A DNA stretch of 64,000 bases. Source: Candidatus Brocadiia bacterium JP1 (GTDB lineage Bacteria; Planctomycetota; Brocadiia; Brocadiales; Bathyanammoxibiaceae). The stretch is taken from positions 283,940 through 347,939 of the forward strand of contig JBMFFR010000002.1 in the NCBI GenBank assembly GCA_051388875.1, in the 5' to 3' direction. Below are positions 30,105 through 64,000 of the stretch, one piece after another (within the stretch, counting starts at the first letter, position 1; each line of letters opens with the position of its first letter). The translations under genes and the position numbers were made by a program. The notes beneath the pieces were generated by a model. That model was not told the origin of the DNA, made no database searches, and was given only the letters and a program-made list of their open reading frames with translations.

Positions 30105-30194
30105 GATAAACGTATAAGTAAGTTTCTGGATGGCAAGAAGGTGGTGAATATAATTCTGGTGCCGAGGAAGCTGGTGAATATTGTGGTGAAATAA
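30105..30194 (+). repeat. Copy 3 of the leuS 3' end (orphan)
   Basis: It encodes DKRISKFLDGKKVVNIILVPRKLVNIVVK* with the frame intact. Confidence 0.9.
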
Positions 30195-30199
30195 GAAGC

Positions 30200-31183: not shown

Positions 31184-31295
31184 GTCCTTGCCTTTTAGTT
31201 TTAATCAAATAATTGATTATTGCACTCTTGTCAAATATAATCTTGGAGGTCTTTGTTTTTCAAAATTTAAAAAATATCAAATGGAGGTTATCCAG

Positions 31296-31496: not shown

Positions 31497-31517
31497 GGTA
31501 ATAGAACAAGGTGAATT

Positions 31518-31775
31518 ATGTTAAAAGGAAAGATTACAAAAAAACAAATTGAGCAAGAATGGCAAAGATTAAATTTTGAGATTTTTGAAAATAAGCCTAA
31601 AACTGATAAACCGTATCCCTCCGACGTAGTTAAAAGGAGAGAACTGCTGCTTTTTGCTCAGGTACACCTAGCTGAAATTTCATGGGCTAAAAGGTGTAAG
31701 GATCGGGAAACCGAGGCATTGCATACAGAAGTGTATAATTTAGTATTGCAGAATTATTACAGTTGGTGCAAATAG
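31518..31775 (+). CDS. Hypothetical protein (85 aa)
   Basis: This is an ORF with an upstream purine-rich tract, tightly spaced before holA. I recognise no family. Confidence 0.4.
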   Translation: MLKGKITKKQIEQEWQRLNFEIFENKPKTDKPYPSDVVKRRELLLFAQVHLAEISWAKRCKDRETEALHTEVYNLVLQNYYSWCK

Positions 31776-31779
31776 AAAA

Positions 31780-41042: not shown

Positions 41043-41045
41043 GTT

Positions 41046-49747: not shown

Positions 49748-49942
49748 AAAAGCCGTCCCCGTAAGACAGCTGGTGCGTGGTACAACCCTGCTAAACTAAA
49801 ACCATCCCCGTAAAAAAACTTGCAGATTTGCCCAATTCTCCTATTCCTGAAGGAAAAAGTCAATGGAAAAACCTTCTTGTGCGCCTGAAGTGTAATTTAT
49901 CTAAAGGTAATTACATGAGACAATCTATCTTGCCTCAAAATA

Positions 49943-49989
49943 CAGGATTCTTCGCTTCCCCTGCGCCTTTGGCTCACTGAGAATGACAA
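49943..49989. repeat. Family D dispersed repeat, third copy
   Basis: CAGGATTCTTCGCTTCCCCTGCGCCTTTGGCTCACTGAGAATGACAA matches 38311-38374. Confidence 0.8.
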
Positions 49990-50216
49990 ACAATGCCACA
50001 AATACTTTTGTAGAAGGCCCTTAAGAAATCATGGGCAGGGCTCATTCTTCCCTCTAAATCCCCCACTCCTCTCCTGATAGTGAGAGGATTGAGAGGCAGT
50101 ACACTAAGCTGGCTTATAGGTTAGGTGTAAGTGTGCTGGAGATAACGAAGACGGTCAAGGATGGTATTATAGACGTCTAGCTATTCTAAATGTGTATTTA
50201 TCTCAGAATCCGACGC

Positions 50217-50423
50217 TTATTCCTCTAAGTAGTCCTTAAGATTAAAGCCGGCATCCTTTAATATCTTCAGGAATAGTCCTTTTGGCAAATCCCCTGGGTG
50301 AATAGGTACAACTGTACGAAAACCAGCCCTTTTATTCTCTAAAACAAGATGTGAGCCTTTCTGCCTTTTCTTTATAAACCCTTTCCTCTTTAAGAATTTT
50401 ACTACCTCTTTTGCAGTAGGCAT
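50217..50423 (-). CDS. hicA: Type II toxin HicA (mRNA interferase)
   Basis: The 68-aa product has KEVVKFLKRKGF...QKGSHLVL, the HicA signature. It overlaps hicB by 1 nt. Confidence 0.88.
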   Translation of the reverse strand: MPTAKEVVKFLKRKGFIKKRQKGSHLVLENKRAGFRTVVPIHPGDLPKGLFLKILKDAGFNLKDYLEE

Positions 50424-50659
50424 TAATCCTCTACTGCAATTTCAATGGAATCAAGGCCCACCACCTTTGCAGTTGATTCAGGGACAGGCTCTCCCTCAGC
50501 TAGTATATCTTCAATATAAAGGGTTAGAGCTTGTGTAATATCTCTTTTTGCCTGAGAGGGCGTATTACCCAGGCCATAAACTCCGGGAAGGTCAGGAATG
50601 TAAGCCCAGTATTTTTTGCCTTCTTTTACTAATACTATCTGGTAAGAGTATGCGTGCAT
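50423..50659 (-). CDS. hicB: Type II antitoxin HicB (N-terminal domain type)
   Basis: The 78-aa product has YWAYIPDLPGVYGLGNTPSQAKRDITQAL, a HicB-like fold pattern. Confidence 0.85.
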   Translation of the reverse strand: MHAYSYQIVLVKEGKKYWAYIPDLPGVYGLGNTPSQAKRDITQALTLYIEDILAEGEPVPESTAKVVGLDSIEIAVED

Positions 50660-50803
50660 ACATATGTCCTTTTTGTAAGGTTAATACTATGCTTACCAGT
50701 TTTCAAACCTATTTTCAAGCTCTTTGCCTTCAATTCCAGGGCTACGAGTACAACGAGTTACTGAAATCGTCTAGGGGTGGAGGCTTAACCATGTAAGCAG
50801 GTC

Positions 50804-52051
50804 TCAGTATTCTACCCTCTTTACCCCGCTTGGATGCCAGGCAGGGGATATGACGCCTGGGCCTGTGGCAGGCTCCAGTAACATCCCCCTGGTAACAGTA
50901 AACTCCCCGTATCTGTCGTTAATGGAATCTATGGCATGGGTAAGTTCTCTTTTTCTCTGGTCTTTCTCAAATAGGGGCAGTTGCTCTACCTTGACTAGAT
51001 TACTCATGCTTACCCCTACCATCCTCACTGCTTGCTTTAACCTGAAAGACCTCAGTATGAACATCGCAACGTGGCATATCTCAAGTCCATCGTTCAAATA
51101 CTCCCTTATGGTTTTCTGCTTTGAGACGGTAAAGAAGTCTGAGTATCGTACGGTAAGGGTAACCGTCCTGCCCCGGTAGTGTCCATGTCTGAGTCTCCTT
51201 GCCACCATTTCAGAGAGTAGAAGGATGTAACGTTCAAGGGTCTCATGGTCGTAAATGTCTCTCTCTAAGGTCATGCTGTGGCCAACGGATTTGGCGTCTG
51301 GTTCTTGGCCTAGTGGTATTACAGGGCTATCATCAAGTCCCTGGGCCATAAGGTGAAGTCTCTCTCCTATTACGCCGAATCTATCCTTCAGGTCTCTTGG
51401 TGGAGTCCTTGCCAATTCTCCGCATGTCCTTATACCCATCTCTAAGAGGTGTTTTTCTAACTGTGCTCCTACACCTACCAGGTCTCCTACTGGTAGGTCT
51501 TCAAGGATAGCCTCTGCCTTCTGGTGGTCTTGTATTACCACAAGGCCATCGGGCTTTTGCATATCGCTTGCCAGCTTCGCCAGGAGCTTATTAGGGGCAA
51601 TGCCTATGGAGCAAGTGAGGCCAAAGAGTGCCTTAATCTGACGCTTTATCTCAGAGGCCATTAGCTTCGCTTCGCTCACTACACGGTTTATAGACCCGTG
51701 AAAGAGGTGGGCTGTGCCTGTTACGTCCAGGAAGGCTTCGTCCACTGAGTAAACTTCTACTAGTGGCGTGTACTGCTTATAGAGTTCAACAAGGCGGGTG
51801 CAGGTGTCAATATAGCGTGAGTTGTGGGCCTGGACAAATATAATCTCTGGACATAGCCTCTTTGCCTCTCCCCTGGTCATGCCTGTCTTTACTCCGTAGG
51901 CCCTGGCCTCGTAGGAGGCGGTGGTAATGATAGTCCTCTTTTGAGAGCCTGTAACGGCTATGGGTTTGCCCCTGAGCCTTGGATTTACCTGTTGCTCCAC
52001 AGAGGCGAAGAAGGCGTTCATGTCTATGTGCATAATCACTCTGTAAGGCAT
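50804..52051 (-). CDS. dinB: Y-family DNA polymerase IV
   Basis: It has IMHIDMNAFFASVEQ, SVDEAFLDVTG and the palm/fingers/little-finger order. Confidence 0.9.
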   Translation of the reverse strand: MPYRVIMHIDMNAFFASVEQQVNPRLRGKPIAVTGSQKRTIITTASYEARAYGVKTGMTRGEAKRLCPEIIFVQAHNSRYIDTCTRLVELYKQYTPLVEVYSVDEAFLDVTGTAHLFHGSINRVVSEAKLMASEIKRQIKALFGLTCSIGIAPNKLLAKLASDMQKPDGLVVIQDHQKAEAILEDLPVGDLVGVGAQLEKHLLEMGIRTCGELARTPPRDLKDRFGVIGERLHLMAQGLDDSPVIPLGQEPDAKSVGHSMTLERDIYDHETLERYILLLSEMVARRLRHGHYRGRTVTLTVRYSDFFTVSKQKTIREYLNDGLEICHVAMFILRSFRLKQAVRMVGVSMSNLVKVEQLPLFEKDQRKRELTHAIDSINDRYGEFTVTRGMLLEPATGPGVISPAWHPSGVKRVEY

Positions 52052-52053
52052 GA

Positions 52054-52305
52054 CTAACCCTCTATCTCCACCTGGGCAAGCTCCCAGACGCAGGATTCTG
52101 TATTGTAGCGTAGCTCATATAGGTTAGCCCCATCTGTAACAGAGAAATGGTATATTACAGCCCTACCCTGACGGCTAGTCCATGTGTAGGTTATGGACTG
52201 TATGCGGTGCTGTTTACCCTGCCACTTGAACCATACGGGCTTAATCTTCCTGCCATTTCCAAAGACTACACCCACCTTAACGGGCTCATTGATAGGGGTA
52301 ATCAT
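52054..52305 (-). CDS. Hypothetical 83-aa protein embedded between lexA and dinB
   Basis: There is a 4-nt gap after the lexA stop and a 2-nt gap before the dinB start. I recognise no family. Confidence 0.6.
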   Translation of the reverse strand: MITPINEPVKVGVVFGNGRKIKPVWFKWQGKQHRIQSITYTWTSRQGRAVIYHFSVTDGANLYELRYNTESCVWELAQVEIEG

Positions 52306-52309
52306 AATA

Positions 52310-52951
52310 CTACCCTCCTCTAAAGGGCTTTAAACTCCCCTCTATACGCCTGAGAACTGCTACCACTTTGCCTACTATGGAGACGTCAGACTGTCCTGCC
52401 TTAATCACCACAGGCTTATACTCAGGATTGGCAGGCTCAAGCCTTATCTCTCTGCCCTTTCTATAGAACCTCTTTACAGTGGCCTCACCATCCATGAGGG
52501 CTGCCACTATATCCCCATTTTCGGCAGTGGGCCTGGGTTTTACCACCACATAGTCTCCGTCCTTTATATGTGCCTCAATCATGCTGTCCCCTTCCACCTT
52601 TAAGAGGAAGTTATCGTCCCCGGAGGTGAAAGACCTATCCACTAAAACGTATCCCTGGACGTCCTCTATGGCTGGTTGTGGTGCACCTGCCTTGATGTGG
52701 CCTACCAGTGGAAGGGTAACTGACTGCCGTGACTTAAGAGAATCACAGAACTCAATGGCCCTGGCCTTGCCTGTCCTTTTTATGTAGCCTTTTTGCTCAA
52801 GGGCAGAGAGGCAGTTCTGTACGGCACTGTGGCTGGCTAGCCCAAGTCCGTCTTTTAGCTCTCTTATACTGGGCGGGTAGCCTTTCTCCCGGATATACTC
52901 CTTCAAGAAAGAAAAGACTCTTGATTGGACCTGGGTTAGGGATTCTCTCAT
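52310..52951 (-). CDS. lexA: LexA repressor (wHTH + S24 peptidase)
   Basis: It has GYPPSIRELKDGLGLASHSAVQNCLSALEQKGYIKR (wHTH), the cleavage region VGHIKAGAP, VEGDSM (Ser) and VGKV (Lys). The ATG at 52951 (MRESLTQ) gives the canonical N-terminus. Alternative starts are at 52969 and 52987. Confidence 0.9.
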   Translation of the reverse strand: MRESLTQVQSRVFSFLKEYIREKGYPPSIRELKDGLGLASHSAVQNCLSALEQKGYIKRTGKARAIEFCDSLKSRQSVTLPLVGHIKAGAPQPAIEDVQGYVLVDRSFTSGDDNFLLKVEGDSMIEAHIKDGDYVVVKPRPTAENGDIVAALMDGEATVKRFYRKGREIRLEPANPEYKPVVIKAGQSDVSIVGKVVAVLRRIEGSLKPFRGG

Positions 52952-52953
52952 AC

Positions 52954-52980
52954 GGTACAAATGTACCATATTATATAAGA
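52954..52980 (-). promoter_or_regulatory. Candidate LexA operator (GGTAC-N4-GTACC) overlapping the lexA promoter
   Basis: The minus strand reads TATAAT-ATG-GGTACATTTGTACC-GT-ATG. The inverted repeat lies at 52954-52967, immediately downstream of a consensus -10 and 2 nt upstream of the preferred start codon. Confidence 0.5.
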
Positions 52981-53596
52981 TTGTCAAGCGGTATTCTACG
53001 AGATAAAGTTTAGCAAGACGTGAGGTGGATTTTCATACCTCTGGCTATCATTTGATAACAGTGACATCATCAATGCCTGTTCACTGGGTGTTGGACGTGA
53101 ATTCACAGGCAGTTTACCCTAAACTCCAACTCCCAATATCGGCAGAAGTTCTTCGGTGGTTTGAGGAGGAGGATAGGCAGTCGGGAGTTTTATCTTGAAG
53201 ACGGTAACCAAATTAACCAATCAGGACAGGACGCTAAAAATAAAGTTAACCCACCCGCCTCAGGCGGGCTACCAGACCACAATAAAACTCTTCAAGATAA
53301 GACTCCTTTCCTACTACCTTACATTCCCACGGGAATTTCAGCCCCTTACACGCACAGCCATTTGAGGTATTCAGTGATAATATCTCGGAGAAAAACGAAG
53401 CAATAATGATCGGTCATACTAGATGGGTAGATGTAGATATAAACCAAAACGTAGTTCTGTCCACCCTAAACATCCTAAGAGTGTGGAAAATATCAGGTAT
53501 TTCTTCTTAGCTTTCAGAGAACAAAAACTTGCCCCTTGGGGAAAACCTTGCACACAGTCCTGTCTCCTGTTATAAATTATTCTTTAAGGCTATTGC

Positions 53597-56500
53597 ATGA
53601 AAAACATGGCTAATACCCCTCCTATCCGCGAAGGTCAGATACTTGAGGGAAGTCTTTTCCCTGAGCCCATGAGGGTAGAGACTGTTCGCCCAAATGGTCC
53701 GGATTCATGGGAAGTCGGCCTCGTCGGTTTAGAGACAGAACGCTTCCGAAAGGTTCCCCTTACGCTTGACCAGATAAAAACCCTCGTAATTCAGGAAATA
53801 AGCCAATCTTACAAAGGTGATGGAGATACTCTCAGGCTTGGTCTCCAGGCATATATGCTTGGAATTGCCTACGAGTTTGACCCCTACTTTGGACTTTCTA
53901 TATCTCGCGTAGACCCCCTGCCCCATCAGCTTGAGGCCGTCTATGACTACCTTCTTAAACTTGCAAGAATTCGTTTCCTGCTTGCAGATGACGCAGGTGC
54001 AGGCAAGACCATTATGGCCGGTCTAGTACTCCGTGAACTTAAACTCCGTGGCCTGGCCGAACGTATCCTGGTTGTTTGCCCCGCCAATCTAACCTTCCAG
54101 TGGCAACGTGAGTTAAAAGAAAAGTTTGATGAAAAATTCATCGTCCTTAAAGGTGATGACATACGAGACCAGTACGGTATCAACCAGTGGATGGAACAAA
54201 AACAAATTATAACCTCTCTGGACCTGGCAAAGAGGGACAAGATTCTACCCGGCCTTGGCCAATGTCATTGGCATTTAGTTGTTGTGGATGAGGCCCACAG
54301 GATGTCCTGGACGCCCCCCTCCCGGAAGACAGAACGCTACGCCCTGGGTGAACTCTTAAGAGAATCCTCAGACCATTTTTTACTCTTAACGGCCACACCC
54401 CACAAAGGAGACCCTGCAAATTTCAGCCTTTTCCTGCAATTATTAGACAAGGATGCTTATGCTAACGTACGCTCCATTCAAGAGGCAATGAACCGTCGTT
54501 ATGCCCCCTTTTACCTCAGACGCACAAAGGAGGCAATGGTATATTTCCCTGAGCGGCAGCCAGACGGTACCTGGGCGGCAACAAAAATATTCAAAAAACG
54601 TATCCCCCGCACAATTAATTTTTCAATAGATGACGCAGAGTTTAATTTATACAGGGATGTTACACGCTTCGTAAAACAGCAAAGTACGAAGGCCGCCGCA
54701 ATGGGGGACGACCCGCAAGCAAGGGCGGTAGGGTTCCTGATGTCCCTCTTTCAGCGCCGCCTTGCCTCCAGCACGTATGCATTGAGACATTCATTAGAAA
54801 ACCGTGCTGATCGCCTCGAAAATAGCTTACGTCAGGCCCGAGAGTTGGCCCAAGTGGCACCGCCCGAACTGCCCACCCCGGAAGAACTGGAAGAAATGGA
54901 AGAGGCAGAACGGGAACGGCTGGAAGAATTCATTGAAGCCGTTACAATTACCAGAGACCCACAACAGATACAGGAAGAAATTGAGACCCTCAATGAACTG
55001 GCAAAGCAGGCCAAAGAGGTAGAAAACTCATGTGTTGAGGAGAAACTCAGCCGACTCAAGCAACTTCTACAAGAAGAAGGCTTTTTTGACCACCCAAATA
55101 AGAGGCTACTGATTTTCACTGAATACAGAGATACACTCAGCTACTTAATAAAAAACCTTAAAGACTGGGGATTCAGAGTGGGATACATCCACGGCGGAAT
55201 GAAACCCGGTTCCCGTGATGAGCCAGGCTCTCGTATCTATTCAGAGCAACAGTTCAAAGATGGTGCATTTCAGGTGCTGGTGGCGACCGATGCGGCGGGG
55301 GAGGGTATTAACCTGCAGTGTTGCCATGTCCTTTTCAATTATGACATCCCATGGAACCCAAATAGATTAGAACAAAGGATGGGACGTATCCACCGCTACG
55401 GGCAAAACAAGGACTGCCTGATATTTAACTTCGTTGCCGCAAATACCATTGAGGGAAAAGTGTTACAAAAACTCCTTGAAAGACTTCAGGAGATACGGGA
55501 CGCCCTGGACGACGATTCGGTCTTTAACGTAGTCGGAGAAATCCTACCCGCCGTCCAAATGGAAACGGTACTACGTGACTACTACGCAGGTAAACTAGGA
55601 GATGCAGACCTTGAGGACCGTATTCTGCGTAATGTAAAAGAGGAAAGGTTCAGGGCAATTTGTCAAAACGCCCTTGAAGGTCTGGCTGCTAAGAAGTTAA
55701 ATCTTGAAATGCTAGTGGAACGCCGTGCAAAGGCACAGGAACGACGTGTAGTCCCAGAGACAATCGCCCGCTTCATGCGAGAATCTGCCCCCCTGGTTCC
55801 TTTCACACTGAAGCCTGTCCCATCCCTGCCCCACACCTTTGACCCTTCACCTACACCACAAATCCTCCGGCGCTACGAAAAAAGTCCAAACTGGAAGCTC
55901 CCAGCCCTTGCAACCAGATACCCGAGGCTTTCTGCTGACAGAGAAACCGCAGAAAACAACAACCTTGAATGGGTAACGCCCGGCCACGAACTCTTTGAGG
56001 CCCTGAGACAACATGCCCATGCAACTGCCCAGGAAGCCTTCACGCAGGGGGCTTGTTTTTATTCTCTGGAACATACCAAACCCTCCAAGCTTGATTTCTA
56101 CAAGGCACGCGTGGTGGATGGACTCGGGCATATTATCCATGAACAACTCTTCGCCATAGAGGTCTCTGAAGATGATGAGCCAAAACTCCGAGAACCTGGG
56201 TTCCTGGGGAACCTTCAACCTGCCAGAGCACCAGAGGTTTTACCTCAGGTTGTTAGTCTACCAGAACCCCGCTCCTGGTTACATGAACAGGCCCTGCAAC
56301 CCTTCCTTGAACAGGCCAGGAAGGAACGCCTGGAGGAAGTGGAGCGTATCAGCAGGCACATTGAACTCTCCCTTACTGAACTCATAGCCCGTGAGGATGC
56401 CCTTATCGGTAGATTTGCAGAGGAGGCCGAAAGAGGGGTGGAAGGTGCGGCAGGCCGTCTGAAGCAGGCAGAAGACCGCCAGGCAGAGTTACTGGATAGA

Positions 56501-57040
56501 CGAGAACGCAGGAGACAGGAACTGGAACGTCAGAAGGCACTCTCACTACAGGCCGTAGAAAGAATCACAAGCGTCCTCATCCTGCCCCACCCTGAACGTG
56601 ATAAGCCAGAGGTACGCCGCCTGAAACCAGACGCAGAGGTTGAGGCAATAGCCATGCAAGTTGCTATTGAATGCGAGAGGTCGCAAGGCCGTGCAGTAGC
56701 AGATGTCCACGAGAAAAACCTGGGATACGACCTCACCAGCCTTGATACAAGAAGCGGTAAACTCCGCCTTATTGAGGTAAAGGGAATTGGTGAGGCCACA
56801 GGAACAGTCCTGCTTACACCCAACGAGAAACGCGTGGCTGAAGACCGCAGGGACTGCTACTGGCTATACGTGGTAACCCACTGCAATACTACACCGAAGC
56901 TACAGGAACCCATCAAAGACCCTGCAAGGCTTAGCTGGCATGAGGTTAAAAAGATAGACCATTACTACATGTCAGTTGATGCATTGACACAGCCAATGGA
57001 GGTGCGGGAAGACTCACCGCCATACGAAGGCAAAACATGA
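53597..57040 (+). CDS. SNF2-family helicase with a C-terminal DUF3883 (PD-(D/E)xK nuclease-like) domain
   Basis: The helicase motifs are LLADDAGAGKT (I), VVVDEAHRM (II), LLLTATPH (III) and QRMGRIHRYGQ (VI). A long coiled-coil region follows. The C-terminus NLGYDL...LRLIEVKG...YWLYVV is typical of DUF3883. Confidence 0.88.
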   Translation: MKNMANTPPIREGQILEGSLFPEPMRVETVRPNGPDSWEVGLVGLETERFRKVPLTLDQIKTLVIQEISQSYKGDGDTLRLGLQAYMLGIAYEFDPYFGLSISRVDPLPHQLEAVYDYLLKLARIRFLLADDAGAGKTIMAGLVLRELKLRGLAERILVVCPANLTFQWQRELKEKFDEKFIVLKGDDIRDQYGINQWMEQKQIITSLDLAKRDKILPGLGQCHWHLVVVDEAHRMSWTPPSRKTERYALGELLRESSDHFLLLTATPHKGDPANFSLFLQLLDKDAYANVRSIQEAMNRRYAPFYLRRTKEAMVYFPERQPDGTWAATKIFKKRIPRTINFSIDDAEFNLYRDVTRFVKQQSTKAAAMGDDPQARAVGFLMSLFQRRLASSTYALRHSLENRADRLENSLRQARELAQVAPPELPTPEELEEMEEAERERLEEFIEAVTITRDPQQIQEEIETLNELAKQAKEVENSCVEEKLSRLKQLLQEEGFFDHPNKRLLIFTEYRDTLSYLIKNLKDWGFRVGYIHGGMKPGSRDEPGSRIYSEQQFKDGAFQVLVATDAAGEGINLQCCHVLFNYDIPWNPNRLEQRMGRIHRYGQNKDCLIFNFVAANTIEGKVLQKLLERLQEIRDALDDDSVFNVVGEILPAVQMETVLRDYYAGKLGDADLEDRILRNVKEERFRAICQNALEGLAAKKLNLEMLVERRAKAQERRVVPETIARFMRESAPLVPFTLKPVPSLPHTFDPSPTPQILRRYEKSPNWKLPALATRYPRLSADRETAENNNLEWVTPGHELFEALRQHAHATAQEAFTQGACFYSLEHTKPSKLDFYKARVVDGLGHIIHEQLFAIEVSEDDEPKLREPGFLGNLQPARAPEVLPQVVSLPEPRSWLHEQALQPFLEQARKERLEEVERISRHIELSLTELIAREDALIGRFAEEAERGVEGAAGRLKQAEDRQAELLDRRERRRQELERQKALSLQAVERITSVLILPHPERDKPEVRRLKPDAEVEAIAMQVAIECERSQGRAVADVHEKNLGYDLTSLDTRSGKLRLIEVKGIGEATGTVLLTPNEKRVAEDRRDCYWLYVVTHCNTTPKLQEPIKDPARLSWHEVKKIDHYYMSVDALTQPMEVREDSPPYEGKT

Positions 57041-58959
57041 TACCCAAAGAATGCAAACGCCTGGCGGAGGTGGATTTCCCGATTGCGGTGGTGAGCAAAC
57101 ATTCGGCACGGGAGAAGTCTATCCGCCATGGACATCCATCTACACTCCATTTGTGGTGGGCAAGGAGACCCCTCGCCGCCTGCAGGGCCATTCTCCTGGG
57201 ACTACTACTGCCCGACCCCGTAGACCCCCATTGCCCTGAGGATTTCAAGACAAAGGCAAGGGAGTTGCTCTCACAGATAGGAGGCACTGGCACCACAGAC
57301 TATGATTTACAGCGGGCACTACTGAAATTCATTGGTGACTTCGCCAACTGGGACAATTCGTCTCATGCAACATATTTAAAGGTATCAAGAGGGCTGGTGA
57401 AGGCCGCTCATGGTGAAGAACCGCCACTGGTGGTTGACCCCTTCGCCGGGGGAGGCTCCGTACCCCTTGAGGCCCTGAGGTTAGGTTGCGAAGCCTTTGC
57501 AAGCGACATTAATCCTGTGGCCTGTCTAATCCTGAAGGTAATGCTGGAGGATATTCCACGTCATGGCCCAAAACTGGCAGAGGAACTCAGGCGTGTGGGT
57601 GCAGAGATCAAAAGAGAGGCAGAAAAGGAACTCGCAGAGTTTTATCCAAGAGACCCTGATGGTTCAACCCCGATAGCCTATTTATGGGCAAGGACGGTCA
57701 GGTGCGAGTCGCCTAATTGCGGTGCAGAAATTCCACTGGTTAGGTCTTTCTGGCTGTGTAAAAAGGCCAATAGGAAGAGGGCATTACGCCCCGTTGTCTC
57801 CCCCCTCACCCCAAACCCTCTCCCTGCGGGAGAGGGAAGGGTGATGGAAATCCCTTCTGTTGACTTTGAGATATTTGAGCCAGAATCTGATAAGGACGTA
57901 CCCAATGGTACAGTAAACCGTGCAAAGGCTACCTGCCTCTGCTGTAGTACCGTCCTTCCACCAGACCGTGTCCGTGCCCAGTTAAGGGAACAAAGGGGAG
58001 GGGCAGATGTGGTCTTTGAACCCTCCCCCTCCGGGGGAGGGAAGGGTGAGGGAGAACCCCCCCTCCCCAAACGCATCAGCGGTGCAAGGCTCCTGGCCGT
58101 GGTTACTCTAAGACCCGGTGAACAGGGCAGACACTACCGCCTGCCTACCGAACAAGATTACCTGGCAGTCTGGAAGGCACAACGCAAGCTCAGGGAAATC
58201 CTGGACGAGTGGGAGCGGGAAGGCAGAAAGGGCCTCTGCCCCGTACCAGATGAGTCAAGCCCGGAAGGTGGAGGGTCCGGTGCTGGGCGAGCTTTCTCTG
58301 TTCGCAAGTACGGCATGAATACCTTTGGGGATCTCTTCATGGCGAGGCAGAAGGTGGGGATGGTGATATTGATAAAGTACACAAAAAAACAGATAAATTC
58401 AGAAGTCACACCTATTCTTGGTCTATTGCTTGGGAAGTCGGCTGATGGTAATAATTCGCTTTCACGTTGGATGGCAGGTTACGAAAATCCGGTAAACCTG
58501 TTTTCTCGTCAAGCGATGCCTATTGTCTGGGATTTTTGTGAATCTACTCCAACTAGTGAAGCTCGTGGAGTCTTTTTAGCCGGCATTTATAGTGCTCAAG
58601 AAGTTATTGATACAAATCATTTCATTGATTCCGGTCAGGTTCAAAAAGTAAATGCTTCTCAAATACTGTTACCTAATGATGCTTGCAATGTTTGGTTTAC
58701 CGATCCACCTTACTACGATGCTATACCTTATTCAGATTTATCTGACTTCTTCTTTGTATGGTTAAAACGAGCTTTGCCAGGTCATCCTCTCCTATGTGAT
58801 CCATTCGATTTGACAAACCCTTTAACGCCCAAGGTGCAAGAAATTGTTCAGGATGAGACTAACAGTTTGATGGGAGGCCAAAAGACAGACAGTTCTTTGA
58901 AGACAGGATGGCCTGTGCCTTTGCTGAAGGACGGAGGATATTACGAGATGATGGGGTAG
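57037..58959 (+). CDS. DUF1156-domain DNA methyltransferase, N-terminal ~2/3 (gene interrupted by a frameshift)
   Basis: DUF1156 N-terminus: DFPIAVVSKHSAREKSIRHGHPSTLHLWWARRPLAACRA. SAM motif I: VVDPFAGGGS. Zn-ribbon cysteines: CESPNC...CLCC. Catalytic motif IV: FTDPPYYDAIPYSDLSDFF. It overlaps the helicase stop by 4 nt. Confidence 0.85.
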   Translation: MIPKECKRLAEVDFPIAVVSKHSAREKSIRHGHPSTLHLWWARRPLAACRAILLGLLLPDPVDPHCPEDFKTKARELLSQIGGTGTTDYDLQRALLKFIGDFANWDNSSHATYLKVSRGLVKAAHGEEPPLVVDPFAGGGSVPLEALRLGCEAFASDINPVACLILKVMLEDIPRHGPKLAEELRRVGAEIKREAEKELAEFYPRDPDGSTPIAYLWARTVRCESPNCGAEIPLVRSFWLCKKANRKRALRPVVSPLTPNPLPAGEGRVMEIPSVDFEIFEPESDKDVPNGTVNRAKATCLCCSTVLPPDRVRAQLREQRGGADVVFEPSPSGGGKGEGEPPLPKRISGARLLAVVTLRPGEQGRHYRLPTEQDYLAVWKAQRKLREILDEWEREGRKGLCPVPDESSPEGGGSGAGRAFSVRKYGMNTFGDLFMARQKVGMVILIKYTKKQINSEVTPILGLLLGKSADGNNSLSRWMAGYENPVNLFSRQAMPIVWDFCESTPTSEARGVFLAGIYSAQEVIDTNHFIDSGQVQKVNASQILLPNDACNVWFTDPPYYDAIPYSDLSDFFFVWLKRALPGHPLLCDPFDLTNPLTPKVQEIVQDETNSLMGGQKTDSSLKTGWPVPLLKDGGYYEMMG

Positions 58960-60131
58960 GTTGTGTGGTATTTGCCCACAAGACCACTGAAGGCTGGGAG
59001 GCCCTTCTAACTGGCATGATTCGGGGTGGCTGGACAATTACTGGTTCCTGGCCCATTCTTACCGAGATGGGAAGTCGCCTCCGTGCCCGTGAATCCGCGG
59101 CCCTTGCTACCAGCGTCCACCTTATCTGCCGCCCGAGGCCTGACAATGCCCCGGTGGGCGATTGGGGAGAGAAACTTCATGAACTTCCCAATCGCATAGG
59201 GGATTGGATGGAGAGGCTCTCTGGTGAGGGCATAAGGGGTGCCGATTTGGTCTTCGCCTGTATTGGCCCTGCGCTGGAATTATTCAGCAAATATTCTAAA
59301 GTAGAAACTGCGGAAGGGCGTACGGTGGAACTGCCCGAATTCCTTGAGAAGGTGTGGGAGGTGGTGGGGCGAACTGCCCTTGGTCAAATACTTGGCACTG
59401 CAGAGGCACGGGCACGCAATAGCGCCGCCGGCGCCCTTGAAGAGGACGCACGCCTCACCGCCCTATTCCTCTGGACACTTCAGTCCACAGAGGTAGGACA
59501 GGCAGGATGCCTGTCACCAAATAACAGCGAGATTGACGAAGGGGAAGAGGCTGAAGAGGAACCAGATGAGGAAGAGGCCCAAAAAAGTAAGGGGAAGAAG
59601 GGCCAGAGCTTGATATTTGATGTGGTACGACGTTTCGCCCAACCCCTTGGTATTCATCTTCAGATATGGGAGGGCCGAATAATTGAGACAGAGAAGGGTA
59701 TTGTGCGTCTGCTATCTGTGAAAGAGAGGGCCAGGCAATTGTTTGGAGAAGACGGGGCCTCTGCCATTGCAGACCAGATAGAACACAGTACGCCGGATCC
59801 CCTACAACAGCTACTCTCCTTTGCTAAAAAAGGGGTTGATGACGTTCCAAGAATCCTGGGCAAGGGCAAGGCCAGGGGTAGAAAGACCGGGACAGGTCTA
59901 GAAAAGGACTTGCAAACAAGGCAAGAAGCTACTACCTTAGACAGGGTGCATGCGGCAATGTTATTACAGGCGAGCGGACGGGCAAACGCACTGAAGGCAC
60001 TCTTAAAGGCAGAGCAACAACGAGGCCCTGATTTTCTAAGGCTCGCCAACGCCCTCTCTGCCCTGTATCCAAAAGATAGTGAGGAAAAACGCCTATTGGA
60101 TGCTATGCTACTGGCCGTGCCTCGTACATGA
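58908..60131 (+). CDS. DUF1156-type methyltransferase, C-terminal ~1/3 (continuation in the -1 frame)
   Basis: This frame is open from 58863 and encodes ..GRPKDRQFFEDRMACAFAEGRRILRDDGVGCVVFAHKTTEGWEALLTGMIRGGWTITGSWPILTE. That is the region that normally follows the DPPY motif in these enzymes. Confidence 0.8.
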   Translation: MACAFAEGRRILRDDGVGCVVFAHKTTEGWEALLTGMIRGGWTITGSWPILTEMGSRLRARESAALATSVHLICRPRPDNAPVGDWGEKLHELPNRIGDWMERLSGEGIRGADLVFACIGPALELFSKYSKVETAEGRTVELPEFLEKVWEVVGRTALGQILGTAEARARNSAAGALEEDARLTALFLWTLQSTEVGQAGCLSPNNSEIDEGEEAEEEPDEEEAQKSKGKKGQSLIFDVVRRFAQPLGIHLQIWEGRIIETEKGIVRLLSVKERARQLFGEDGASAIADQIEHSTPDPLQQLLSFAKKGVDDVPRILGKGKARGRKTGTGLEKDLQTRQEATTLDRVHAAMLLQASGRANALKALLKAEQQRGPDFLRLANALSALYPKDSEEKRLLDAMLLAVPRT

Positions 60132-60192
60132 TTTCATACTAGTAAAGATTTAATGACACACGGAACCAGTTAAGGGAGAAAAAGGGGAAAGC

Positions 60193-60474
60193 GTGCTTAA
60201 GCGAATCTTGGACCAAATGAAGGATAAGATTCGCAGGCGATTGTATGTCATGACGCTTCATGCTGAAGAAGAAATGAATGAAGATGGTTTGACGATTTAC
60301 GATGTTGAAAGTAGTATTCTCACCGGGGAGATACTTGAACGCCAGAAGGACAGAGTGACTTCAGAATGGAAATACCGAATTAGCGGGCATGCCGTTTCAG
60401 GTGGTAAGGTTGAGGTGATTGTGAAGTTAAGTCCAACTGGCAAGTTGGTCATTATTACTGTTTATATCCCATAA
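60193..60474 (+). CDS. DUF4258-family putative toxin
   Basis: The 93-aa product has LHAEEEMNEDGLTIYDVESSILTGEILE, matching the DUF4258 pattern (H..eRM..r.I....v..vl..G). Confidence 0.7.
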   Translation: MLKRILDQMKDKIRRRLYVMTLHAEEEMNEDGLTIYDVESSILTGEILERQKDRVTSEWKYRISGHAVSGGKVEVIVKLSPTGKLVIITVYIP

Positions 60475-60491
60475 AAACTGGAGGGGATCAG

Positions 60492-60719
60492 ATGTTATGT
60501 GACATTTGCGGGCAAGAAAGCGTACGTATCCGCCGGGTGGCCAGGACATACGGAAAGGGTAGGCATATACTAGTAATAGAAAACGTTCCGATAGTGAGTT
60601 GTCCGCACTGTGGGGAAAGCTACCTAACAGCAGAGACGCTTCAGGCAATAGAGCGCATTAAACTTCATCGGAGGAGCCTGGCGGTGGAACGGCCTGTGGA
60701 AGTAGTTAGCTTCGTATAG
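60492..60719 (+). CDS. YgiT-type zinc-finger protein (MqsA-N-like putative antitoxin)
   Basis: The 75-aa product has CDICG...x24...CPHCGESYL, the YgiT-type pattern. It is paired with the DUF4258 gene. Confidence 0.7.
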   Translation: MLCDICGQESVRIRRVARTYGKGRHILVIENVPIVSCPHCGESYLTAETLQAIERIKLHRRSLAVERPVEVVSFV

Positions 60720-60786
60720 AAATGCAAAATGAATCCTGACACACCTGCCTGTCAGTGGAATATAACTTAATAAGAGGTAAATAGAT

Positions 60787-63543
60787 ATGGAACCCTGGTA
60801 TAAGGTCGTAACCCCCAGAAAAGAGGTACGAGAGGGAAGGTCATTTAACCCCGATGAGTTTGCCATTGCCTTAGAACAGGTGGTGGCTGGTACTGCCCCA
60901 GAAGACTATAGTAACCCTTCTAAGTTCTTCTCCCGCACCTGCTTCACACGTGCCCTCCGTGAACATACCGGGATGGTGCTCCGCCGCCTATCAGGAAGGA
61001 CAGAGAATGCTGCGCCCGTCTTAATGCTTATCACGCAGTTTGGAGGTGGTAAGACTCACACGTTAACCGCCCTCTACCACATGGTGCAAAATGGAAATGA
61101 ATTGCAGAAGGAAGAGGGTATAAAGAATCTCCTTAAAGAGGCAGGGCTTTCTAGCCTACCGCAGGCAAAGGTCGCCGTCTTTGTGGGAAATGCCTGGGAC
61201 CCACAGGAAGGTCGTGAGACACCATGGGTTGATGTAGCACGACAGCTTGCCGGCGATGCTGGGGTAGCCGTCCTGGGTAAGGCCTCCAGAGAGGTACCCC
61301 CCGGCACTGAAACACTGGGTAATCTCTTTCAGGCTGCGGGTGGCAGGGCCTTAATCTTGTTTGATGAGGTACTAAACTTCTTTAACCGCCACCGCAGTAT
61401 GGCAGAGGGCTTCTACGCCTTTGTGCAGAATCTCACTGTGGCCATGACTGGAAGTAGTCATTGCTCGGCGGTGGTAAGTTTACCCAGAAGTCAGGTTGAG
61501 ATGACGGACTGGGACTTTCAATGGCAGGAGAAGATTACGAAGGTCATAAGGCGGGTGGCCAAGGACCTTATCGTTGCCGATGAGGCAGAAATAAGTGAAG
61601 TGCTCAGAAAACGACTGTTTGAAGACATCGGAAACGAACGGGTAAGGAAGAATGTATCAAGGACCTATGCGGACTGGTGCTTTGAGCGTAGGGCCCAACT
61701 ACCACCTGAGTGGACTGCCGTGGACACTGCCACTACAGAGGCTAAGGCTAAAGAGTTCTTGAGGTCTCAATTTGAGGCCTGTTATCCGTTCCATCCTGCA
61801 ACCCTTTCTGTATTTAGGCGTAAATGGGCCGCCCTGGCTCAGTATCAGCAGACCCGTGGCACTTTAGCCATGCTTGCCCAATGGATTTCCAGGGCGTCTC
61901 AAAAGGGTTCTCGTACAGCCCGCAAAGAACCACTGATTACCATTGGCTCGGCCCCCATGGATGTCCCCGAATTCAGGGCTACCGTTCTGGGACAGTTGGG
62001 TGAGACCCGTCTCGTTCATGCCATAGATGCCGATATAACTGGCACCCAGAGCCATGCAAGGGCATTAGACATAGATACAAAAGGGGCCTTGCGTGACATA
62101 CACTGGCGCGTGGCTGTGGCCATACTCTTTGAATCCTCCGGCGGTCAGGCCGATAAGGTTGCCCATCTACCAGAGCTACGTTTTGCCCTTGGTGAACCAG
62201 AAATAGAGACGACCTCCATTGACAACGCCGCCATTGAACTTGAAAGGAAGGGGTTCTATCTGCGTAAAGTAGGGCCGGATGGCTTTCGTTTCGGTTACAA
62301 ACCCACACTCAAAAAGGTCGTAAATGATAGGCGTGCCTCCCTTGACCCGGAGGAGATAAAAAGAGAGACCAGTGTCATTGTGAGAAAGGAGTTTGGTAAG
62401 GGCACAAGTGTACCTCTGGTCTTCTTTCCCGAAGATGGCACAACCATGCAGGACACCCCGAAACTCACTATAGTAATAATGCACCCCGAAGCCGAATGGG
62501 AAGGAGAGGGGACTACGCGTGTCCGCATAGCCGAATGGACGAGGCAAAGAGGTAAATCCCCTCGCCTTTACCCTGGCTCTCTTATCTGGTGCATCAGGCG
62601 ACCGGGGCGTGACCTCTTTGAGAAGGTAGAGATTTTACTAGCCTGGAAACGTGTGGAAAGGGAACTTAAAGAAGGTATCCTGGGGGGAGAGTTTGAGCGT
62701 TCCGAACGTGCTGAGGTGGAGTCAAAAGTGAGTGATGCGGGTGAGGCAGTAGTGGACGAGGTGTGGGCGAGCTTTCGTTTCGTTGCATTATACGATAGCA
62801 AAGAACCAGACGGTTTAAGGGAAATTAACCTGGGGGCAGGACACGCAAGTAGTGCAGAGACCCTTTGTGGACGCATTATAACTGCCCTCAAGTCTAACCA
62901 ACTATTAAACGAATCCGTTGGTGCAGGCTACATTGAACGCAACTGGCCCCCTGCACTGAAGGAATCCGGTGCCTGGCCCCTTTCAAGCCTCAGGCAGAGT
63001 TTTCTTAATGGGGCACTCACACGGCTCTTGGACCCGGATTCAGTATTGTGTGGGAAGATTATGGGCTTTTTAAGTCATGGGGAGTTTGGACTGGCCTCGG
63101 GAAAGAAACCTGAAGAAGGCTACAACAGGGTGTGGTTCAGTGAGTTAATCTCTCCAGATGATATTCTCTTTGAAGCAGATGTCTATTTACTCACAAAGGA
63201 GAAGGCAAAAAAATTAAAGGCACCATCCGAACCCATTGGGCCAGTGCCAGCCCAACCAGAAAAAGAAGAAAAGCCTCAACAAGCCATTCCAAAAGCCGAA
63301 ACTCCAGTAGAAGAGACAGCTGGCAAGAAAATTGTTTACATAAGGGGCAATATCCCACCAGAATTGTGGAATCGCCTGGGCACAAAGCTTATCCCAAAAC
63401 TAAGGGCAAGTACCAGCGTACAATATGGTATAAACTTCGTCGTGGAACTAGACCTCAAATCAGCCTTAATGCTTAAAGCAGAAATTGACCAGGTTTTGAA
63501 AGACCTCAATTTGTCAGATAGCGTTCATGCAGAAATTAAGTAA
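60787..63543 (+). CDS. DUF499-family ATPase
   Basis: It has the N-terminus MEPWYKVVTPRKEVREGRSFNPDEFAIALEQVV, Walker A TQFGGGKTHTL and Walker B ALILFDEVLNF. Length is 918 aa. Confidence 0.85.
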   Translation: MEPWYKVVTPRKEVREGRSFNPDEFAIALEQVVAGTAPEDYSNPSKFFSRTCFTRALREHTGMVLRRLSGRTENAAPVLMLITQFGGGKTHTLTALYHMVQNGNELQKEEGIKNLLKEAGLSSLPQAKVAVFVGNAWDPQEGRETPWVDVARQLAGDAGVAVLGKASREVPPGTETLGNLFQAAGGRALILFDEVLNFFNRHRSMAEGFYAFVQNLTVAMTGSSHCSAVVSLPRSQVEMTDWDFQWQEKITKVIRRVAKDLIVADEAEISEVLRKRLFEDIGNERVRKNVSRTYADWCFERRAQLPPEWTAVDTATTEAKAKEFLRSQFEACYPFHPATLSVFRRKWAALAQYQQTRGTLAMLAQWISRASQKGSRTARKEPLITIGSAPMDVPEFRATVLGQLGETRLVHAIDADITGTQSHARALDIDTKGALRDIHWRVAVAILFESSGGQADKVAHLPELRFALGEPEIETTSIDNAAIELERKGFYLRKVGPDGFRFGYKPTLKKVVNDRRASLDPEEIKRETSVIVRKEFGKGTSVPLVFFPEDGTTMQDTPKLTIVIMHPEAEWEGEGTTRVRIAEWTRQRGKSPRLYPGSLIWCIRRPGRDLFEKVEILLAWKRVERELKEGILGGEFERSERAEVESKVSDAGEAVVDEVWASFRFVALYDSKEPDGLREINLGAGHASSAETLCGRIITALKSNQLLNESVGAGYIERNWPPALKESGAWPLSSLRQSFLNGALTRLLDPDSVLCGKIMGFLSHGEFGLASGKKPEEGYNRVWFSELISPDDILFEADVYLLTKEKAKKLKAPSEPIGPVPAQPEKEEKPQQAIPKAETPVEETAGKKIVYIRGNIPPELWNRLGTKLIPKLRASTSVQYGINFVVELDLKSALMLKAEIDQVLKDLNLSDSVHAEIK

Positions 63544-64000
63544 GGGCAAGTACAATTATTTATGTAAAAATATAGAGGCATAAGAACCTCCTGAATTATG
63601 TTAGGCCACAGCCTTCATGGGGTAGAGTTTCTCTTTCGGTGGTTGAGATGACTCAATATTCTGAGGGTTATCTTTATTCCATACCACCTTTTTAAGGCGA
63701 TTATTAACGTGGCAATGCAAAGAAGAAAATAACAGGGTAATCACGGTATGATTATGAAATATCGCAAAACTGTGTTTTATCCCGCTATCTGTTTTACAAA
63801 AGGCACTCCTTTGTTAAGCCTGAGCCGCCCACTAGCACTGTCAGCCCCTTCTTATGCCTCTCTATGAGTGGATTGAATTTTACTCTGTAATTGCCGTGTT
63901 GACAAGGGTTGTCTCTTGACAATTCTTCTCTGTAGTTGTAACCTATTGAATTAATTGGAGATAACAGGTGTTTACCAGGACCCAAAAAGAAGGAATTTAC

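Follow-up and report, generated by a model that had tools for sequence, protein, structure and literature searches.

An Hma (helicase–methylase–ATPase) locus with a frameshifted methylase gene and an embedded putative toxin–antitoxin pair

Introduction

Three large genes that follow one another on the + strand, close to the end of a 64,000-nucleotide stretch of DNA (the window), pose two questions: which defence system do they encode, and is that system likely to work in this genome? An earlier note, made from the letters alone, read them as an SNF2 helicase ending in a DUF3883 nuclease-like domain, a DUF1156 Zn-ribbon methylase with DPFAGGGS and DPPY motifs and a DUF499 P-loop ATPase, and assigned the trio to the Hma type. 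Such systems have been credited in the literature to Anantharaman 2013, Bell 2020 and Payne 2021; the name Hma was given by Payne 2021, and Hma was re-classified as a Type-1 DUF499-centred BREX-related (BR) system by Rakesh & Krishnan (NAR 2026). Here we establish the identity and architecture of all parts of the locus, locate a frameshift in its methylase gene and describe the cargo slot between its second and third genes.

Results

Identity and layout of the locus

The locus is an Hma (helicase–methylase–ATPase) system and an ordinary example of the kind already described. As such it is a Type-1 DUF499-centred BREX-related system, a predicted restriction–modification (R-M)-like operon acting against phages and plasmids. 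Its features, in order, are as follows.

53597 to 57040, + strand: hmaA, intact, 1147 aa; Swi2/Snf2 helicase with a C-terminal NOV_C (formerly DUF3883, PF13020) PD-(D/E)XK nuclease domain
57037 to 58959, + strand: hmaB 5' fragment, 640-aa ORF; DUF1156, motif I, insert with a 4-Cys zinc ribbon, motif IV
58863 to 58869, + strand: hmaB frameshift site, CAGTTTG; single -1 frameshift, most simply TTTT to TTT at 58866-58868
58908 to 60131, + strand: hmaB 3' fragment, 407-aa ORF from an internal ATG; rest of the catalytic fold (VVFAHK, GGWTITGSWP) and C-terminal region
60193 to 60474, + strand: putative DUF4258 toxin gene, 93 aa
60492 to 60719, + strand: putative antitoxin gene, 75 aa; YgiT/MqsA N-terminal zinc finger only, no HTH domain
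60787 to 63543, + strand: hmaC, intact, 918 aa; canonical DUF499 AAA+ (putatively ORC/Cdc6-BrxC-like) ATPase without an N-terminal HEPN domain

PADLOC Hma models were the best match for HmaA, for both HmaB fragments and for HmaC, and the Pfam domains agree, DUF1156, DUF499 and NOV_C all being recovered. The two computational checks that the earlier note had proposed thus uphold its description of the genes and its assignment of the trio, with the exceptions in hmaB described below. The order A-B-C is common to 60+ loci from many phyla, in which the trio has been retained as a unit with identities of 57-82%. [quoted passage not shown] Payne et al. 2024 kept hma pseudogenes out of their curated set, and hmaB here is frameshifted. 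A Pfam scan that covered the upstream neighbours and every locus ORF of 60 aa or more detected no PglZ, DUF3780, HKD or iSTAND domain.

HmaA and HmaC

HmaA matches PADLOC model PDLC00659 with E 9.1e-171 (aa 65-1094 on profile positions 63-1131 of 1176), the best of 63 matches. Pfam places SNF2-rel_dom, Helicase_C and NOV_C (E 1e-20, aa 1015-1103) on the protein and finds no match in aa 1-100 or 650-1010; Rakesh & Krishnan 2026 also ascribe to Type-1 helicases a TUDOR domain at the N-terminus and an inactive REase in the interior. The helicase motifs are GAGKT (aa 134-138), DEAH (231-234) and QRMGRIHRYGQ (593-603), and the nuclease motifs GYD (1043-1045), EVK (1060-1062) and E1077. By motif, D1044, E1060, K1062 and E1077 match the residues mutated in Halomonas HmaA; the NOV_C domain and these residues predict the active C-terminal PD-(D/E)XK endonuclease that characterizes Type-1 BR helicases. 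The closest solved relative of HmaA by sequence is RapA (E 3e-39); sequence searches of solved structures returned no PDB relative for HmaB, HmaC or the DUF4258 protein.

HmaC matches PDLC00662 with E 4.1e-90 (aa 1-840 on profile positions 3-843 of 941) and Pfam DUF499 with E 4e-16. Its Walker A (GGGKT, aa 86-90) and Walker B (D193-E194) residues are invariant in 52 homologues. An AF2 model of HmaC, with a pTM of 0.39 and residues 260-500 poorly predicted, has as its top PDB matches BrxC (9zll_D, prob 0.97, E 7e-3) and ORC/Cdc6 proteins, all of them weak (E 7e-3 to 2e-2). At the same pTM of 0.39, aa 847-917 of the model form a beta-alpha-beta-alpha-beta element compatible with an RRM-like fold; the ATPases of Type-1 BR systems are described as ending in an RRM-like domain, behind an ORC/Cdc6-type AAA+ core related to BrxC. 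As judged from these motifs, the catalytic residues of both HmaA and HmaC are intact.

A frameshift splits hmaB

The hmaA and hmaB genes overlap by 4 nt (ATGA), as had been noted. The 5' ORF of hmaB carries DUF1156 (Pfam E 6e-24, aa 14-74) and MethyltransfD12, together with motif I (DPFAGGGS, aa 134-141) and motif IV (DPPYY, aa 556-560). An insert of about 415 aa between these motifs (aa 141-556), here called the target recognition domain (TRD), houses a zinc ribbon (C223/C228 ... C300/C303, Cx4C...Cx2C) that is conserved in homologues. The sequence thus predicts the methylase expected of a Type-1 BR system: an N6-methylase that begins with DUF1156 and has a TRD with a single zinc finger nested within it. 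The domain, the motifs and the 4-Cys ribbon of the earlier description all stand, but the ribbon belongs to the insert and not to the DUF1156 domain, and the methylase is not encoded by a single gene. That description mentioned a 'repaired methylase', which only hinted at a break and passed over its effect on activity; the break can now be placed.

Homology to the HmaB models PDLC00661/00660 is complete, but it is spread across two reading frames (E 1e-81 for the 5' ORF; E 1e-22 for the 3' ORF, profile positions 673-798). In the 5' ORF, homology to intact HmaB proteins stops at about aa 610 and the final 30 codons are out of frame, and in the frame of the 3' ORF it starts at 58869, ahead of the ATG at 58908. 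Six intact HmaB homologues, aligned by tblastn, switch from frame 1 to frame 3 at 58863-58869, an interval bounded upstream by a frame-3 stop (TAA, 58860-58862); the conserved DGRPKD starts at 58869. Addition of one residue at the break yields a seamless alignment with intact homologues, and all six that were examined are single ORFs through this point. Intact homologues share 60-69% identity with the 3' fragment over their C-terminal parts. The frameshift lies in the catalytic domain, after motif IV and before the next strand, and unless it is a sequencing error the system is probably inactive in this genome. Since the roughly 9 kb that encode the hma proteins show no other lesion, any inactivation would be very recent.

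A putative toxin–antitoxin pair in the hmaB–hmaC slot

The gap of 655 bp between hmaB and hmaC holds two small genes (60193-60719), a putative toxin–antitoxin (TA) pair that the first reading of the window had missed. The upstream gene has a GTG start preceded by a purine-rich stretch, and its product belongs to DUF4258 (Pfam E 1.3e-14; 1381 homologues, mostly 93 aa), a family placed in the BECR-fold, RelE/ParE or colicin-like superfamily (PMC11980606; bioRxiv 2026.08.28.747851). After an intergenic gap of 18 nt follows the putative antitoxin gene, whose product scores above the cut-off for NCBIfam TIGR03831 YgiT_finger (E 4e-15) and below it for the MqsA family (E 1.5e-5). It covers positions 1-55 of 131 of Pfam MqsA_antitoxin, and a sequence search of solved structures reached MqsA only at E 0.2. 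DUF4258-MqsA fusions have been reported (PMC11980606). Adjacent small genes for a DUF4258 protein and a YgiT/MqsA zinc finger are as predicted for a type II TA module; no PADLOC model matched the pair.

A DUF4258 homologue followed by a 75-aa gene also occurs in loci L073, L074 and L077, and the 75-aa gene of L073, the one compared, is clearly homologous to the gene here. Because the two-gene unit is also found outside hma loci, the pair would be an autonomous unit, a putative TA module. A tblastn search of 69 related hma loci did not detect the pair, so that among these loci it does not recur as Hma cargo.

The slot itself is commonly occupied. It measures at least 300 bp in 51 of 57 relatives, as does the hmaA–hmaB slot in 32 of 38, and the cargo found in relatives includes TA, AAA_21, TIR, PD-(D/E)XK, Schlafen, DUF3644, GmrSD and OLD domains. 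These counts agree with the published embedding rates of 62.7% and 66.5%, genes between hma genes being a published hallmark of the family.

Neighbourhood of the locus

Upstream, on the - strand, lie hicA, hicB, a Y-family polymerase gene and lexA, as the hicBA and SOS (lexA-dinB) neighbourhood of the earlier note would have it. We rejected SOS control of the hma genes, which their position next to lexA is not enough to suggest: the palindrome GGTACAAATGTACC is perfect only at the lexA promoter, and nothing similar occurs in the 610-bp spacer between lexA and hmaA. An 81-aa ORF at 53161-53406 has no family match, no Rfam family was found in 49500-64000, and promoter and terminator scans gave no excess over shuffled sequences. 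Elsewhere, the window encodes an encapsulin together with an NIR-HAO cargo, and this pair points to a host that is probably an anammox planctomycete.

Discussion

A proposed mechanism and the state of the system

We infer the order of biochemical events in this system by analogy with MANTIS, its Type-2 sister, and with BREX, and its inactivity here from the frameshift. HmaC, the AAA+ protein, would bind the N6-adenine methylase HmaB and load it onto short asymmetric DNA motifs, which the HmaB insert between motifs I and IV, with its zinc ribbon, would read as the TRD. Host DNA would be marked as self by methylation. On an unmodified site of incoming DNA, HmaB-HmaC would license HmaA, a predicted Snf2 translocase whose C-terminal PD-(D/E)XK domain would nick or cut the DNA. 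In this genome, where hmaB is frameshifted but its two partner genes are intact, both modification and restriction directed by sequence would most likely be off, and we propose that the cell tolerates the broken hmaB because HmaA is unlicensed without HmaB. The DUF4258/YgiT cassette appears to have landed in a known hma cargo slot, where it may serve as a stabilizing or back-up abortive module. Taken as a whole, this account (a Type-1 Hma system, licensing of HmaA by HmaC-HmaB, the system off here and a TA cassette in the slot) seems to us rather more probable than its failure, by a modest measure. Points against it are the additional co-factor (MtsB) and the different nuclease (HKD/PLD) of MANTIS, the weakness of the HmaC match to BrxC, the T4 results for Halomonas HmaA and HmaB described below and the chance that the frameshift is an assembly error.

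A comparison with the closest relative, L070, bears on the role assigned to HmaB. HmaA and HmaC are 82% and 80% identical to their L070 counterparts and HmaB is 56% identical, falling to only 22-32% over HmaB residues about 250-550. This pattern suggests that the specificity region of HmaB has been swapped or diversified relative to L070. That the region between motifs I and IV diverges while HmaA and HmaC remain about 80% identical supports HmaB as the specificity subunit.

The R-M- or BREX-like reading with a helicase-nuclease effector, which the earlier note had offered, agrees with the published view (PMC12839542). Its remark that the mechanism is uncharacterized no longer fully holds, given anti-T4 data for HmaA (PMC11232893) and the biochemical and structural dissection of MANTIS, where loading of the methylase falls to the DUF499 ATPase, methylation leaves DNA hemimethylated and restriction depends on MtsABC (bioRxiv 10.64898/2026.09.23.753747).

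Alternative explanations

The strongest competitor, which we consider unlikely while giving it real weight, is that a T was dropped from a short T run during sequencing or assembly, the frameshift being an error, and that the organism carries a working three-gene Hma system. The single frame break, the lack of further stops and the conservation of both HmaB fragments (59-69% identity), which resembles that of intact homologues, would all fit, as would related MAG loci, especially the long-read loci L051 and L063, in which multiple frame breaks in all three genes resemble assembly errors. The run is a T3 only, however, and not an error-prone long homopolymer, and the other large genes checked in the 64-kb window are single ORFs (an RND pump of 1038 aa, leuS of 846 aa, cysS, hmaA and hmaC). 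Disruptions confined to hmaB, with A and/or C intact, also occur in L019 and L029, which speaks against an error, the frequency of hmaB pseudogenes among relatives being confounded by error-prone long-read MAGs.

Alternatively, HmaA may be a stand-alone, methylation-independent effector of a non-canonical abortive or dormancy type, with HmaB and HmaC as dispensable modulators, so that the locus still defends. In E. coli, HmaA by itself protected about 100-fold against T4 without being toxic, an effect that needed helicase motif VI as well as the NOV_C nickase (PMC11232893); in the Halomonas work, HmaB overexpression did not let T4 escape, phage grown on HmaB-expressing cells being restricted all the same. 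On these two results methylation-directed licensing is unproven for Type-1 systems. Moreover, hmaB is missing from 14.7% of hmaA loci and hmaC from 19.3%, and the hmaA gene here has all its catalytic motifs. Against this stand the circumstances of the HmaA-alone result (plasmid expression, a heterologous host and a single phage with modified DNA), the retention of the A-B-C trio as a unit at 57-82% identity in many phyla, the divergence of the HmaB insert in the manner of a specificity determinant, and the sister system MANTIS, where restriction needs both methylase and ATPase. On balance we find a stand-alone HmaA improbable.

Equally doubtful is a decaying operon in which the embedded DUF4258/YgiT pair acts as an addiction module that retains a dead locus. 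Toxicity and neutralization are putative in the DUF4258 TA family, for which Table 1 of PMC11980606 lists no known target or activity, and this weighs against the idea. A broken hmaB, a closest relative with a compact operon, an intact hmaB and no TA pair, and a pair that behaves as an autonomous mobile unit and turns up in unrelated contexts would all be expected of such a relic; hmaA and hmaC, however, are free of decay, and a single lesion in about 9 kb points to a very recent event. Finally, it is extremely improbable that methylase expression is regulated by a switch at the break, either programmed or phase-variable, through ribosomal -1 frameshifting or through slipped-strand mispairing: phase-variable methylases occur in other R-M systems and the change from frame 0 to -1 does sit at a T run, but the break has no X XXY YYZ heptamer, AGT TTG would be unable to re-pair in the P site, a T3 run falls far short of the length that slipped-strand or transcriptional slippage needs, and six of six intact homologues examined read through in one ORF.

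Significance

Little here is new in kind, since the Hma/Type-1 BR family, its habit of embedding cargo and part of its mechanism have been published, and a copy with a broken methylase is not the one to choose first for work on the Type-1 mechanism. Its value is modest and lies elsewhere. With L070 the locus forms a natural allele pair, about 80% identical in helicase and ATPase and sharply different in the motif I-IV region of the methylase. As a candidate natural hmaB-null it could help to show whether HmaA depends on licensing. The DUF4258/YgiT pair adds one more cargo type to the guilt-by-embedding catalogue. We hold out only a slim chance for the joint proposition that this viable genome is a natural knock-out of hmaB alone, in which case, given a real frameshift, HmaA would not be autonomously self-toxic and would have to be licensed by the methylase, as in MANTIS or BREX, and that the pair is an uncatalogued, Hma-embedded, RNase-based back-up; if so, the pair, for which PADLOC has no model, would be a defence candidate that acts when the primary system fails.

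Comparison with known systems

The Type I, III and ISP R-M systems share the logic proposed here, a methylase that confers specificity and an ATP-driven translocase-nuclease acting on unmodified DNA. They are built from other protein families; the present locus has an additional putative ORC/Cdc6-type AAA+ loader and no HsdS or Res/Mod homologues. Among DISARM proteins, DrmD resembles the helicase core of HmaA (PADLOC E 1e-120; NCBIfam 353 bits against a cut-off of 610) and lacks the NOV_C nuclease. We rejected membership of DISARM, as this sub-cut-off similarity of the Snf2 core is the only resemblance and there is no DrmA (DUF1998 helicase), DrmB, DrmC or DrmMI/II.

Type-3 BREX (BrxC, BrxXI(PglXI) and BrxHII with PglZ, BrxA and BrxF) is closer. 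HmaA matches the PADLOC BrxHI|BrxHII models (E 1e-100 to 5e-108), BrxC is the best, though weak, match of the HmaC model, and the architecture of the Type-3 methylase is reported to be near-identical to that of the Hma methylase. Here, however, the nuclease is fused to the helicase and there is no PglZ, BrxA or BrxB/F; BREX membership requires PglZ, which none of the locus ORFs or their neighbours encodes.

The closest counterparts are the Hma systems of PADLOC (Payne et al. 2021, 2024) and HmaABC of Halomonas meridiana (Liu et al. 2024), with the same three proteins, order and domains and, as here, embedded genes between the hma genes. The present host, by comparison with Halomonas, is probably an anammox planctomycete; its frameshifted hmaB departs from curated Hma sets, which exclude pseudogenes, and its cargo, a DUF4258/YgiT pair without a PADLOC match, from the common Septu, ABC-ATPase and GmrSD cassettes.

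MANTIS (Gao_RL; Type-2 BR; Shaw et al., bioRxiv 2026) differs in having a fourth gene, MtsB, which this locus lacks. MtsB is given as DUF3870 in the preprint, and the Type-2-specific component as DUF3780 in PMC12839542. The nuclease of the MANTIS helicase is an N-terminal HKD/PLD domain, where that of HmaA is a C-terminal PD-(D/E)XK (NOV_C) domain, and HmaC scores 98 bits against NCBIfam DUF499_antiphage, whose cut-off is 1200. Nonetheless, its DUF499 AAA+ ATPase is homologous to HmaC, its N6-adenine methylase belongs to the same nested-TRD family and its effector is likewise an Snf2-type helicase-nuclease, and MANTIS is the best available mechanistic template for the system described here.

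Identity of the locus

Searches with Pfam and PADLOC confirm what the earlier note had read as three large co-directional genes for SNF2/NOV_C, DUF1156 and DUF499 proteins (NOV_C is PF13020, formerly named DUF3883). Positions 53597-63543 hold three large plus-strand ORFs, plus smaller ORFs:

53597-57040, plus strand: hmaA, 1147 aa; Pfam SNF2-rel_dom, Helicase_C and NOV_C; best PADLOC model HmaA, E 9e-171
57037-58959, plus strand: hmaB 5' ORF, 640 aa; DUF1156 and D12-class methylase motif region
58908-60131, plus strand: hmaB 3' ORF, 407 aa; PADLOC HmaB match, without a Pfam match
In the hmaB-hmaC gap: gene for a DUF4258 protein, 93 aa; E 1.3e-14
18 nt past the DUF4258 gene: gene for a YgiT-type zinc-finger protein, 75 aa; TIGR03831, E 4e-15
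60787-63543, plus strand: hmaC, 918 aa; DUF499; PADLOC HmaC, E 4e-90

The PADLOC HmaB profile is covered at positions 5-187 by the 640-aa ORF and at 673-798 by the 407-aa ORF. The 4-nt helicase-methylase overlap is ATGA, and the methylase motifs previously noticed are present as DPFAGGGS and DPPYY. HmaA contains GAGKT, DEAH, QRMGRIHRYGQ and the nuclease D/EVK/E set; HmaC contains GGGKT and DE, with Walker residues invariant among 52 homologues. By sequence, the closest solved relative of HmaA is RapA, likewise named nearest relative of BrxHII in a 2026 analysis (PMC12839542). An AF2 model of HmaC (mean pLDDT 67, pTM 0.39) gives BrxC and ORC/Cdc6 as top PDB matches, at weak significance.

This helicase-methylase-ATPase trio was noted in 2013 (PMC3710099) and again in 2020 (PMC7641849), named Hma by PADLOC in 2021 (PMC8565338) and reclassified in a 2026 analysis as the Type-1 'DUF499-centred BREX-related' (Type-1 BR) system (PMC12839542). 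The present locus has every feature of the PADLOC Hma definition save freedom from pseudogenes, the exception being hmaB, and carries those Type-1 BR markers that were tested in HmaA and HmaB; HmaC has DUF499 and the Walker motifs, on a putative BrxC-related ORC/Cdc6-type core. Type-2 (DUF3780, HKD) and Type-3 (PglZ, iSTAND) markers are absent from the locus. The earlier identification was thus correct and its reading broadly right, but it lagged behind the literature in calling the mechanism uncharacterised, since that mechanism is partly published; it also left unspelled the break in hmaB and the two genes between hmaB and hmaC.

A putative embedded toxin-antitoxin pair

The two genes occupy a 655-bp gap. 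DUF4258 proteins are described as BECR-fold RelE/ParE or colicin-like RNase toxins of putative activity, and DUF4258-MqsA fusions are reported (PMC11980606; bioRxiv 2026.08.28.747851). The 75-aa protein is equivalent to MqsA reduced to its N-terminal, toxin-binding domain, with the HTH domain missing. PADLOC models match neither protein. The same pair, at 80% nucleotide identity, lies beside a TPR gene at another locus (L073), and at two more (L074, L077) DUF4258 homologues are followed by a 75-aa gene and adjoin hicAB or housekeeping genes. Because the pair recurs outside hma, sequence comparison points to an autonomous cassette.

A frameshift in the methylase gene

Six intact HmaB homologues (1000-1020 aa) align to frame 1 as far as about 58869-58908 and to frame 3 from about 58863-58875. 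A frame-3 stop (TAA, 58860-58862) on one side and the conserved DGRPKD, which begins at 58869, on the other confine the lesion to CAGTTTG (58863-58869), most simply explained as TTTT shortened by one T. Adding one residue yields a 1031-aa HmaB whose alignment is free of further breaks. The frameshift falls within the catalytic fold: motif IV (DPPYY) precedes it, and GVGCVVFAHK is the first conserved segment after it.

As hmaA and hmaC are intact and only hmaB is frameshifted, the system is most simply read as having lost its activity recently, the broken hmaB being tolerated because HmaA would not be licensed without HmaB. One rival holds that HmaA defends alone: Halomonas HmaA by itself lowers T4 about 100-fold in E. 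coli and is not toxic, an effect dependent on motif VI and the NOV_C nickase (PMC11232893), and overexpressed Halomonas HmaB gives no T4 escape (Liu et al. 2024). Another takes the locus for a relic retained through toxin-antitoxin addiction. An assembly error is possible, but we do not favour it and think it rather improbable, as the other large genes checked in the window are intact. A programmed or phase-variable frameshift is unlikely, because the site is neither a slippery heptamer nor a long homopolymer.

Surroundings within the window

The hicBA and lexA-dinB neighbourhood described before is indeed found upstream of hmaA, with hicB and hicA, also on the minus strand, directly downstream of the following genes:

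50804-52987, minus strand: lexA, an 83-aa ORF (52054-52305) and a Y-family polymerase gene (IMS domains)

These three genes, of which the 83-aa ORF matches no family, look like a compact cassette for SOS mutagenesis. The perfect palindrome GGTACAAATGTACC (GTAC-N4-GTAC; 52954-52967) overlaps a sigma-70-like minus-strand promoter just upstream of lexA. From this placement it is probably a LexA operator, and lexA then likely starts further downstream than the listed TTG (52987). Within hicA lies a second GTACAACTGTAC (50306-50317). No lexA-type palindrome precedes hmaA, so SOS control of hma is not indicated. The 610-bp lexA-hmaA spacer (52988-53596) contains no recognisable gene; it carries a strong terminator-like minus-strand hairpin (53271-53247; 11 bp stem, then a T run). 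Searches around the locus gave no tRNA, no Rfam family and no obvious island border; the window ends 457 bp past hmaC.

Elsewhere, region 38439-42014 encodes a family-1 encapsulin shell protein (41046-42014, minus strand; NF041155, E 3.5e-72) followed by an 867-aa fusion (38439-41042, minus strand) of a cupredoxin/Cu-nitrite-reductase-like N-terminus and a hydrazine-dehydrogenase/HAO-like multihaem C-terminus, presumably the anammox 'NIR-HAO cargo' encapsulin pair. These two genes point to a Brocadiales host, probably an anammox planctomycete. A low-GC patch at 29000-32000 (0.37, against about 0.47 elsewhere) includes a 327-aa ORF (30200-31183, minus strand) whose product has an EVE domain, of the kind that binds modified bases (E 4.6e-6). 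It may be a modification-sensing element in its own right, acquired by horizontal transfer. The distance to hma is 22 kb, and we claim no link.

Relatives and embedded genes

HmaC homologues number in the thousands. The best 120 are 65-80% identical, most of them 65-69% over full length, and span Nitrospirota, Planctomycetota, Chloroflexota, Bacillota, Acidobacteriota, Lentisphaerota, Thermotogota and others; such conservation across very distant phyla implies frequent recent horizontal transfer, strong constraint or both. More distant DUF499 homologues (28-35% identity) occur on 143 plasmids in a plasmid collection, notably from cyanobacteria, Thermus, Rhodococcus and haloarchaea, some annotated as Swt1-family HEPN fusions.

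The A-B-C order is kept in 66 genome loci and in Nitrospira tepida. Junctions are mostly loose, with at least 300 bp between hmaB and hmaC in 51 of 57 loci and between hmaA and hmaB in 32 of 38. Embedded ORFs carry DUF433/DUF5615, HEPN/nucleotidyltransferase, PIN, AAA_21/AAA_15 (with DUF4276), TIR, PD-(D/E)XK, Schlafen AlbA_2, DUF3644, GmrSD, OLD-TOPRIM, Fic and other domains. The junction statistics only replicate the published embedding of other defence genes: a dedicated study gives 62.7% for 1,485 systems and reports activity for seven of the nine cassettes it tested (Payne et al. 2024), and the Halomonas report gives 66.5%.

Insertions of kilobase size interrupt hma genes in some relatives: hmaC is split across 6.2 kb in L058 (7319-13539), and hmaB is stretched by >1 kb in L027 and L063. 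The hmaB-hmaC slots of L030 and L034 hold 6-7 kb of cargo, up to eight ORFs. Nitrospira tepida (L002, OX365700.1; 9379-9974, 14730-16828) has a DUF433/DUF5615 toxin-antitoxin pair in this slot and a DUF3644 gene (HEC-08-like HEPN) between hmaA and hmaB; just downstream, an IS (rve) element is accompanied by more small toxin-antitoxin-like genes in a row, including a weak DUF4258 match and DUF6883/DUF4926.

The closest relative, L070, is a compact operon without cargo and with an intact 1002-aa HmaB. Identity to it is 82% for HmaA, 80% for HmaC and 56% for HmaB, falling to 22-32% over HmaB residues ~250-550, the pattern expected if this were a target-specificity region that has been exchanged or diversified.

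Proposed mechanism and relation to known systems

In MANTIS, the Type-2 sister system, the methylase is loaded by the DUF499 ATPase together with MtsB, six-bp asymmetric sites become hemimethylated, and restriction by the helicase-nuclease requires MtsABC and prefers inverted sites (bioRxiv 10.64898/2026.09.23.753747). By homology and analogy, HmaC with ATP would load HmaB onto its motif, and N6-adenine methylation by HmaB would mark self DNA. On unmodified DNA, HmaB-HmaC would license HmaA to translocate, then nick or cut. The present data support this only through the architecture, the intact motifs and the divergence of the HmaB region between motifs I and IV.

BrxC, BrxXI and BrxHII of Type-3 BREX are homologous to Hma/Type-1 BR components (PMC12839542), but the hma locus is not BREX, because it lacks PglZ. 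Nor is it DISARM, because HmaA resembles DrmD in the Snf2 core only, under the NCBIfam cut-off. The locus is a further member of the already known Hma/Type-1 BR family, with a broken methylase and unremarkable toxin-antitoxin cargo.
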